Virus record (IMG/VR): IMGVR_UViG_2684622620_000010
Span: 1 to 16,330 of that record
From: a virus
Taxonomy: Duplodnaviria > Heunggongvirae > Uroviricota > Caudoviricetes
Reading direction: 5' to 3' (one strand)
Length of the DNA stretch: 16,330 nt
Below the pieces are notes generated by a model. It ran no database searches, was not told the DNA's origin, and worked only from the letters and a program-made list of their open reading frames with translations. Shown here piece after piece: positions 5,132 to 5,317 of the stretch (positions are counted from its first letter, which is position 1; each line of letters starts with the position of its first letter). The translations under genes and the position numbers were made by a program.

Positions 5132-5317
5132 GAGCGCACTTCATCGACTCAACTTTGAGCTTTGTCGTTAAATTTTGAAATGGCGGAGTGCGCTCCCGGT
5201 TGTGGTGAACAGGTGTTTAACGGGAACTCCCTGCCCGTTACCCGGTTCGATTCCGGGCGCCCATCATCAATTTGCTGTGTTTAGTCTTTGCCCAGTCCGC
5301 ACGATGGGCCATTTTTT
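5132..5317 (+). other. Highly structured non-coding segment in the early leader (candidate cis-acting RNA or sRNA)
   Basis: 9-bp long-range inverted repeat GAGCGCACT (5132-5140) / AGTGCGCTC (5187-5195). Two directly adjacent hairpins follow (5218-5240: 7-bp stem, 9-nt loop; 5241-5257: CCCGG-TTCGATT-CCGGG, a tRNA T-arm-like motif). A terminator-like hairpin GCCCA-N10-TGGGC followed by CATTTTTT lies at 5290-5317. Confidence 0.3.

Follow-up and report, generated by a model that had tools for sequence, protein, structure and literature searches.

Does a compact array of RNA helices in the early region of a lambdoid prophage act only on the transcript that carries it, or does it give rise to an RNA of its own? 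The question is raised by positions 5132–5317 of the virus record IMGVR_UViG_2684622620_000010 from IMG/VR, a stretch of DNA of 16,330 nucleotides that was analysed as a whole and that we call the window. A reading made from the letters alone (the sequence-only reading) had described here a compound RNA structure, composed of a long-range stem, two adjoining hairpins, one of which mimics the T-arm of a tRNA, and a terminator-like hairpin. We found that the last part of this segment is homologous to the processed 3′ half of the small RNA RprA and that it lies at the position taken by dicF in the cryptic prophage Qin of Escherichia coli K-12. As a whole, the segment appears to make up the 3′ two-thirds of a non-coding cassette of modular build; this cassette lies in the early-left leader, which is dicB-operon-like, of a lambdoid prophage of the DicA/DicC type. 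We put the probability of the overall picture at about 60%, including the steps in which the early-operon transcript would be processed at a tRNA-shaped element and thereby free an Hfq-type small RNA, whose hairpin would also terminate transcription.

All of the elements described earlier were found in the sequence at the coordinates assigned to them. The 9-bp inverted repeat consists of GAGCGCACT (5132–5140) and AGTGCGCTC (5187–5195), the hairpin TAACGGG/CCCGTTA (5218–5240) meets the hairpin CCCGG-TTCGATT-CCGGG (5241–5257) with zero spacer, and GCCCA...TGGGC (5290–5309) is followed by CATTTTTT (5310–5317). In a repeat search, the two arms could be extended to 12 nt with 92% complementarity. 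In the minimum free energy (MFE) fold of 5120–5325, which holds all four elements, the long-range stem reaches ~21 bp and is formed by 5120–5142 with 5185–5206. The energy of this fold, −76.5 kcal/mol, was not attained by any of 200 dinucleotide shuffles (−58.0 ± 4.4 kcal/mol; z = −4.2), in agreement with a compound folded RNA. The pairing is also maintained in related prophages, where compensatory changes hold the helices paired in diverged copies, and of 5426 complete E. coli genomes, 448 (~8%) carry the stretch 5196–5325 at 99% identity or more. Because of this conservation, the features go beyond what would be expected by chance. Two points had escaped the sequence-only reading: the 9-bp stem belongs to a longer helix, which comes directly after a conserved phage RNA of ~160 nt, and the terminator-like hairpin is the homologue of the processed RprA 3′ half, at the dicF position. 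We divided the RNA into four modules, A to D, with the following parts.

4964–5119 (+): module A, a structured phage RNA of ~160 nt, with a P1 hairpin carrying a GCA loop and the invariant GGUAGCCGGAAUGUGCAAG
5120–5142 (+): 5′ strand of helix B (module B), GCUACAAC.CG.GAGCGCACUUC, including the first repeat arm at 5132–5140; from the MFE fold and covariation
5143–5184 (+): apical region of helix B, variable between phages, with the recurrent motif GUCGUUAAAU...GGCGG
5185–5206 (+): 3′ strand of helix B, GGAGUGCGCUC.CG.GUUGUGGU, including the second repeat arm at 5187–5195
5212–5261 (+): module C, a tRNA-like three-way unit without a D arm; from folds and covariation in a diverged lineage
5212–5215 with 5258–5261: closing stem of module C, 4 bp, GGUG with CGCC
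5218–5240: hairpin 1 of module C, loop AACUCCCUG
5241–5257: T-arm mimic of module C, loop UUCGAUU, stacking directly on the closing stem
5266–5317 (+): module D, ~50 nt, a free seed and an intrinsic terminator
5266–5273 (+): A/U-rich junction AUCAAUUU, common to the region round the annotated 5′ end of K-12 DicF (locus L313, 1075–1090)
5272–5289 (+): seed of module D, UUGCUGUGUUUAGUCUUU, containing the phage-wide 17-mer UUGCUGUGUNUAGUCUU
5290–5317 (+): terminator of module D, stem GCCCA(G)UC/GAUGGGC, then CAUUUUUU; from a terminator scan, folds and the RprA alignment
5319–5325 (+): ACACAGC, complementary to GCUGUGU (5274–5280) of the seed; from the MFE fold

Module D and the processed form of RprA

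We found that 5272–5317 aligns with the last 47 nt of K-12 RprA (nt 60–106) with 41 of 47 positions identical. The Smith-Waterman score of this alignment was 60, as compared to 14.2 ± 2.2 for shuffled sequences (maximum 27 in 1000). The relationship was also evident in a blastn search of 5196–5325 against all complete E. coli genomes (28 Gb), which matched the annotated rprA in 5420 of the 5426 genomes at 84% identity (E = 6e-5). The Rfam model of RprA (RF00034) gave 37.4 bits over 5209–5319 and 30.6 bits over 5255–5319 (model positions 44–108), against a threshold of 70. Upstream of 5272, where the tRNA-like unit lies, there was no alignment to nt 1–59 of RprA.

RprA is cut by RNase E between GA and AUU with Hfq, and the processed form is active and more abundant than the primary transcript (PMC5222698); it corresponds to exactly the last 47 nt (PMC9262595). 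The window counterpart of the cleavage site reads AUCAA-UUUGCUG, with the cut after AUCAA. Like processed RprA, module D is made up of a seed, a hairpin and a U tail, and the match starts at the processing site. Its seed is the single-stranded 5′ part of processed RprA, save for one G-to-U change. In contrast to RprA, which is a free-standing gene under Rcs control, module D sits in a phage operon, does not have the 5′ 60 nt including the region that pairs with rpoS, and carries a bulged stem and a CA before the U tract. The junction AUCAAUUU fits the preference of RNase E (CAA-UUU, cut before the U run) and is the predicted 5′ processing site of the small RNA.

With its G+C-rich stem-loop and U run, 5290–5317 qualifies as an intrinsic terminator. 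A terminator scan matched 5295–5309 together with CATTTTTT, folds gave a bulged stem of seven bp, and the stem covaries in phage BUCT709. In the MFE fold, the terminator hairpin is nested within the pairing of GCUGUGU (5274–5280) with ACACAGC (5319–5325).

The 17-mer UUGCUGUGUNUAGUCUU (as DNA, TTGCTGTGTNTAGTCTT; 5272–5288) occurs in at least 120 viral contigs. Among 103 distinct copies, 85 have a stable hairpin and a U run behind it, with stem sequences that vary freely, and the base before it is A in 94%. Thus, a single-stranded block of 17 nt is fixed before many unrelated stems, which is the signature of a seed and not of a terminator. After the U run, ACAC(A/G) or CACA(A/G) was found in 36 of the 103 copies. 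Some of the terminators behind the 17-mer are DicF-like, and one sibling copy with the window-type seed (locus L184) was recognized by the Rfam DicF model at 61.6 bits (threshold 48). The annotation of named phages in the commonest context of module D held nothing informative. In many cases, the 17-mer belongs to a shorter form of this leader that lacks A, B and C; thus, the A-B-C block of the window, ~300 nt, looks inserted into a leader that already bore D. Together, the recurrence of the processed-RprA seed suggests one large family of phage small RNAs, kin to DicF and to the 3′ half of RprA.

Helix B, the tRNA-like unit and module A

The 9-bp stem noticed at the outset is real and conserved, and it is part of a helix of ~21 bp. 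Across 31 distinct copies of helix B, the 20 pairs are canonical in 89.8% of cases, as compared to 30–57% in slid registers and 79.8 ± 0.9% after column shuffles (maximum 82.4% in 1000); because the register was placed by hand via sequence anchors, with one bulged base allowed in some copies, these figures lean somewhat towards structure. Double compensatory changes were found at no fewer than seven pairs, for instance G-C/C-G/U-A at one and G-C/A-U at another. Helix B occurs without module A at three loci (L145, L257 and L267). It is also present upstream of dicF in K-12 Qin, where 44 nt align at 77% identity, the pairing is unchanged, and the 3′ half is again GUCGUUAAAU...GUGCGCUUCC GGUUGUGG. 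A duplex of ~21 bp would be a plausible substrate for RNase III.

The 3′ strand of helix B was also considered as a boxA (NusB-E site), and this was rejected. The strand reads UGCUCUUU in some copies, UGCGCUCC in the window and UGAGCUAC in others, and it is base-paired with covariation. The motifs GGCGGAGUGCG and GGGUAGCC resemble the ops element of RfaH; they lack its essential T, and the bases upstream of them are unconserved.

The covariation of module C is weaker than that of helix B. In its diverged form, present at the same three loci (L145, L257 and L267), hairpin 1 is GAGCUGG-UUUCCCUG-CCAGCUU, followed by UCCGG-UUCGAUU-CCGGA. Between the window and this form, both partners are exchanged in three hairpin-1 pairs and in one T-stem pair with the pairing intact, and the T-loop is unchanged across the lineages. 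Overall, the 16 pairs of module C are 98.4% canonical, 4 of them being changed on both sides, as compared to 36–51% in slid registers. Folded separately, the window copy and the diverged copy adopt the same three-way shape. Viral contigs, metagenomes and Escherichia whittamii yielded three sequence types of module C, along with variants that differ by a single base. A scan of metagenomes added no types to those of the viral contigs, and a scan of species-representative genomes for more variants returned only E. whittamii and unrelated matches.

Module C shares with tRNA genes, the tRNA-like domain of tmRNA and YrlA a canonical T-arm (a 5-bp stem with the loop UUCGAUU) on a short closing helix, together with an extra arm. 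Unlike tRNA genes, it fails the detectors at normal thresholds and has no acceptor or CCA, no D arm and no usable anticodon arm. ARAGORN at default settings and the Rfam tRNA model gave no match, in keeping with the earlier verdict that this is not a tRNA gene. A weak tRNA-Sec alignment reached 19.3 bits against a threshold of 47, and at a 70% threshold ARAGORN drew a poor cloverleaf over 5188–5265 that is in conflict with helix B and the covarying hairpin. An att-site remnant was likewise rejected, as the locus is inside the prophage and separated by 5 kb from its attachment end at serU. Rfam gave no signal above noise for a likeness of module A or C to Y-RNA, tmRNA or RNase P.

A bona fide tRNA-Arg(UCU) was found immediately behind helix B, which here ends with GUUGUG, in 22 distinct cassettes related to that of the window. 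Each time, the tRNA is followed by an AUCACG...CGUGAU hairpin, by a single-stranded stretch that varies between copies and by a terminator of the DicF type, GGCGG...CCGCCCUUUUU. Several of these stretches resemble the window seed, e.g. GAUGCUGUGUAGCUAUU and AGCUGUGUGUACCUUU. Because a true tRNA stands at the equivalent place in relatives, module C fills the tRNA slot of a cassette made of leader, helix, tRNA and small RNA. This analogy lends indirect support to the suggestion of the sequence-only reading that the T-arm mimic could engage tRNA-processing enzymes.

The analysis of these cassettes also revealed a tRNA in Salmonella phage SPN1S (JN391180; L004, 2786–2859) that scores 71 bits with Rfam and is absent from the deposited annotation. 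Its start and T-arm match the tRNA-Arg(UCU) of ST512-KPC3phi13.3, and the insert in the SPN1S helix B holds two further T-arm-like hairpins, CUGG-UUCAAUU-CCAG and GUC(A)G-UUCGAUU-CGGAC. Within the window, UCCCUG in the loop of hairpin 1 (5225–5233) could pair with CAGGGA/GGGAAA, which belongs to the closest GAA(A/G)GA hairpin upstream (5104–5109). This complementarity holds in both module C lineages (L267 included) and overlaps a stem in the window; it may be a loop-loop kissing contact, or chance.

Module A adjoins helix B and has the terminal hairpin CCAGG-GAAGAGU-CCUGG. In a distant blastn search of phage genomes, 4964–5135 matched unannotated intergenic DNA of unrelated phages at 72–77% identity. 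These were the Uetakeviruses SPN1S, Tyrion and PAT1, the Klebsiella phages SopranoGao, ST512-KPC3phi13.3 and ST11-OXA245phi3.2, and the P1-like D6, SJ46 and Ro157c2YLVW. The "Stenotrophomonas" phages BUCT708 and BUCT709 have the entire leader in common with the window, at 71.5%. The longest invariant block of the alignment is the 19-mer GGUAGCCGGAAUGUGCAAG, which was found exactly in at least 120 IMG/VR contigs, with 111 distinct cores among the matches listed. RNAalifold on 16 diverse copies of module A gave 33 pairs, 12 of them with compensatory changes, and no family of Rfam 15, searched up to an E of 10, matched it. Judged from these alignments, modules A and B are an undescribed conserved phage leader RNA, widespread in unrelated enterobacterial phages and prophages.

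Module A usually heads a small non-coding or moron-like unit, with tRNA-Arg, small open reading frames (ORFs) or small-RNA modules. BUCT709 (vB_SmeS_BUCT709, OM816835; L003) has its whole enterobacterial-type immunity region, as well as the leader, in common with the E. coli prophage, and its recorded Stenotrophomonas host is doubtful.

The prophage leader and its kinship with dicF

The repressor encoded at 4303–4695 is 31% identical over its full length to DicA of Qin (E = 1e-15). Qin has the order dicA, ydfABC, helix-B homologue, dicF, dicB (dicBF; RF00039). The window likewise presents a DicA-type repressor, a long untranslated stretch and a terminator-ended candidate small RNA before the early genes, and it has the further marks of a DicF-type location, namely an early operon and a leader helix upstream of the small RNA. 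DicF and the window have the junction AUCAAUUU in common at the small-RNA 5′ end, and their seeds are related (UUUCUG-GUGACGU-UU in DicF as compared to UUGCUGUGUUUAGUCUUU). In contrast to DicF, the window terminator is of the RprA type and not GGCGG...CCGCC, and Qin lacks module A as well as any tRNA-like unit between helix B and dicF. A search of the window with Rfam found no DicF at E up to 10 (gathering score 48). Because the seed differs from that of DicF, targeting of ftsZ, xylR and pykA is not to be assumed. On this comparison, the locus is best filed as a relative of dicF, that is, as a putative small RNA at the dicF position with an RprA-type seed and terminator and a tRNA-like element before it.

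Qin between dicF and dicB (L313, 1140–1310), D6 (L005) and many contexts of module D have further recurrent leader modules in common. One of them, GUGGUGAAUGCGG...GCGC, follows helix B in many cassettes, and a second is the hairpin GGUGG/CCUGG-AGGCA-CCACC/CCAGG, followed by CACAAC. By its sequence, the dicBF leader seems to have been assembled from this same stock of modules.

The start of the leader is marked by the following features.

~4215–4250: operator-like palindromes between the divergent cro-like and repressor genes, with the same half-sites as the promoter palindrome
4303–4695 (+): helix-turn-helix repressor gene, preceding ~1 kb without an annotated gene
4815–4843 (+): PL-like sigma-70 promoter, TTGACC-17-TAAAGT, from a promoter scan; presumed start of the leader transcript
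4822–4840: operator-like palindrome TTACAAA-N5-ATTGTAA, overlapping the PL-like promoter

A homologous promoter and leader start are present in loci L257 and L267. We infer that 4815–4843 is a PL of the dicB-operon type, controlled by the repressor, from which the leader is transcribed; the leader RNA could also arise by read-through out of the repressor gene, which lies upstream in the same orientation. Below this promoter the untranslated leader runs for ~840 nt, and the flagged segment lies 280–470 nt into it. Over its 1 kb, the leader is 95–100% identical in 481 genomes.

The window is composed of E. coli chromosome and the lambdoid prophage, which is inserted at the tRNA-Ser(CGA) gene serU, with mtfA, asnT and yeeJ as neighbours. 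The same prophage type was also found at leuZ-cysT-glyW. On the minus strand, up to 4210, the prophage carries replication genes, a YdaT-like gene and a cro-like gene. Downstream of the unannotated ~1 kb come, in order, ORFs of 106 and 740 amino acids, Gp157, DUF4224 and the integrase. Positions 1–1310 and 15021–16330 are identical and represent two direct copies of an IS3-family element with an ALIL frameshift pseudoknot, which flank the prophage remnant, serU, mtfA, asnT and a truncated yeeJ. Either this is a composite-transposon-like or translocatable unit, or the window wraps round a circle of 15,020 bp.

On the + strand, 7 copies of the motif GGAAAGAC were counted where 0.4 are expected, and six of these lie within the leader or shortly past it; listed sites are 4902, 4951, 5388, 5452, 5610 and 6033. 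Several copies are the GAAAGA loops of short hairpins, and two others form the Shine-Dalgarno regions of ORFs. The first such hairpin, GCCG-GAAAGA-CGGC (4899–4912), comes after GUUCUGAC, and its stem covaries in relatives (GCCCG/CGGGC, GUCUG/CAGAC). With the preceding GUUCUGAC, it recalls a boxA-boxB nut site; no N-like gene was identified. Past the terminator, at 5320–5690, the leader is ~90% conserved with BUCT709, above the conservation of the flagged region, and holds the direct repeats GCCTGACCAGC (5411 and 5433) and the hairpin GACCCGCACAAGGCGGGCC. Read on the minus strand, this hairpin is terminator-like (5548–5530, then a T run) and has weak similarity to isrK and isrB, and a small minus-strand transcript from the region is possible.

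Processing, competing explanations and meaning

In the model we favor, the leader would be transcribed from the repressor-controlled promoter through A, B, C and D in order, and a fraction of the transcripts would end at the terminator of D (5317). The tRNA-shaped unit would serve as a processing and insulating signal. Cleavage by RNase E of the kind that acts on tRNA 3′ trailers, between AUCAA and UUU, would free a small RNA of ~48 nt with a 5′ monophosphate; further cuts may be made by RNase P on the 5′ flank and, within helix B, by RNase III. The freed RNA, with its seed, hairpin and U tail, would bind Hfq and base-pair with host or phage mRNAs via the RprA-type seed, while in read-through transcripts the downstream ACACAGC would mask the seed.

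Precedents for such processing are DicF, which obtains its 5′ end by RNase E and its 3′ end by the terminator or RNase III from an operon transcript (PMC5069750), and 3′ETS-leuZ, which is freed from a tRNA precursor by RNase E (PMC5222698). As in 3′ETS-leuZ, the window RNA lies just below a tRNA-shaped structure, ends at the operon terminator and has an A/U site at the junction. In contrast to 3′ETS-leuZ, the structure is tRNA-like rather than a tRNA (no acceptor or CCA, D arm or anticodon), the processing is predicted, and the seed resembles that of an mRNA-targeting small RNA and not a known sponge.

Several observations weigh against this model. The promoter at 4815–4843 is presumably repressed in the lysogen. 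Module C is narrow in its distribution, with four distinct sequences, and all of its covariation comes from one diverged lineage. Its closing stem and T-stem add up to 9 bp as compared to the 12 bp of a tRNA minihelix, and it carries no CCA, which makes recognition by RNase P uncertain. BUCT708 and BUCT709 retain A, B and D with module C swapped for a different hairpin; thus, C is dispensable for D. Module D itself is below the Rfam thresholds for both RprA and DicF, and in isolation it folds with −9 kcal/mol. Because its stem is bulged and CA parts the U tract from the stem, termination may be weak. Finally, no complement of the seed was found elsewhere in the window. The statements on structure and homology are much firmer than those on the processing and regulatory steps.

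Could these modules be inert relics, with C a decaying tRNA pseudogene, D simply the first early-left terminator, and no small RNA acting in trans? The fixed 17-mer would then serve termination, pausing or protein binding in cis. The true tRNA-Arg in the slot of related cassettes, the poor cloverleaf drawn by ARAGORN at the 70% threshold, the absence of C from BUCT709 with its narrow distribution, and the evident terminator function of D all fit such a history. We nevertheless consider it unlikely, as four stem pairs of C are altered on both sides and none is broken, the T-loop is invariant, and the cloverleaf cuts across the covarying hairpin and helix B. Moreover, the segment is at least 99% identical in its 448 genomes as compared to 95–99% for the whole leader, the 17-nt single strand is fixed before unrelated terminator stems, and both relatives known by name, RprA and DicF, are Hfq small RNAs that act in trans. 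An origin in mosaic joints at the DNA level, where B-type sequences are recombination boundaries and the conservation results from recent horizontal spread instead of RNA function, appears very improbable. A, B, C and D do occur in varied combinations and genome positions in unrelated phages, a sequence like the 3′ strand of B flanks module A on both sides in ST512-KPC3phi13.3, and there are sharp break points after C. However, recombination needs no compensatory changes across strands 45–200 nt apart, and all modules are co-oriented with the terminator and with flanking genes or tRNAs. This explanation is compatible with RNA function and can hold alongside it rather than instead of it.

Control of transcription in cis, by a put-like antiterminator or by an attenuator in which alternative B/C pairings set termination at D, seems to us very improbable, even though the place is right: an early-operon leader, just before a terminator that RNA polymerase must pass to reach the early-left genes. 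GCCCAUC at 5259–5265 repeats the 5′ strand of the terminator (5290–5296) and is complementary to GAUGGGC (5303–5309), and GGAGUGCGC can pair in helix B or, alternatively, with GCGCCCAUC. The put RNA of HK022 brings about read-through of terminators by binding to the zinc-binding domain of the RNA polymerase beta′ subunit. It is ~70 nt long with two stem-loops, putL lying directly after PL and putR ~270 nt past PR (PMC9378689). The sequence-only reading had seen the layout of HK022 put in the twin hairpins. What stands of this is two adjacent stem-loops in a folded RNA of an early lambdoid leader; kinship with put does not stand. In blastn, 4850–5700 gave short chance matches only with the HK022 immunity region, the best being a 16-mer within cII, and putL and putR, located, extracted and compared by eye (core CGAACGGC...GGCG.GKUCARGAUGA...CAAUG.UGC), are not similar to it. 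In contrast to put, the twin hairpins are not promoter-proximal but ~360 nt past the PL-like promoter, are 40 nt long and lie within a three-way junction. They are missing from BUCT709, a close relative with an otherwise conserved leader, and elsewhere module C is replaced by a true tRNA. The GCCCAUC duplication does not extend to the L145 lineage, and many phages carry D in a short leader without A, B and C. As for a small protein, the sequence-only reading had accepted that homologues with intact in-frame coding sequence here would speak against an RNA. A 59-codon ORF (GTG 5202, TGA 5381) does run open through C and D in the window, and GUGGUGAA follows helix B in many cassettes. However, the frame meets a stop at codon 6 in L145 and L257, is interrupted in BUCT709 and L271 and is frameshifted in L262, and the substitutions track base-pairing and not codons. 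With the frame broken in five homologues, the segment is taken as non-coding, and a protein product has almost no probability left.

DicF has so far been viewed as an almost solitary prophage small RNA of early-operon origin, and RprA has been counted solely among core-genome regulators; the present locus connects them. At least 120 viral contigs carry the processed-RprA seed unchanged, at the place where Qin has dicF, and in many of them it stands directly behind a tRNA or tRNA-shaped element. Module A is a widespread structured phage RNA with no Rfam family; in the largely open literature searched we found no description of it, of phage copies of the RprA 3′ module or of the tRNA/small-RNA arrangement, which is no proof of absence. 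As a tentative interpretation, these parts may form a mobile non-coding phage cassette of leader RNA, helix, tRNA or tRNA shape, and Hfq-type small RNA, in which the tRNA of the window has been reduced to a processing-competent shape and the small RNA mimics processed RprA, tapping its regulon on induction or infection. The reverse direction is possible as well, with the 3′ domain of the core-genome RprA descending, like DicF, from a phage small-RNA family. Should the small RNA prove to be produced and active, it would exemplify phage mimicry of a host regulator. It would then also open a way into those effects of processed RprA that are still unexplained, among them its indirect action on narP, and would provide a bacterial case of tRNA-shaped punctuation that frees a regulatory RNA.

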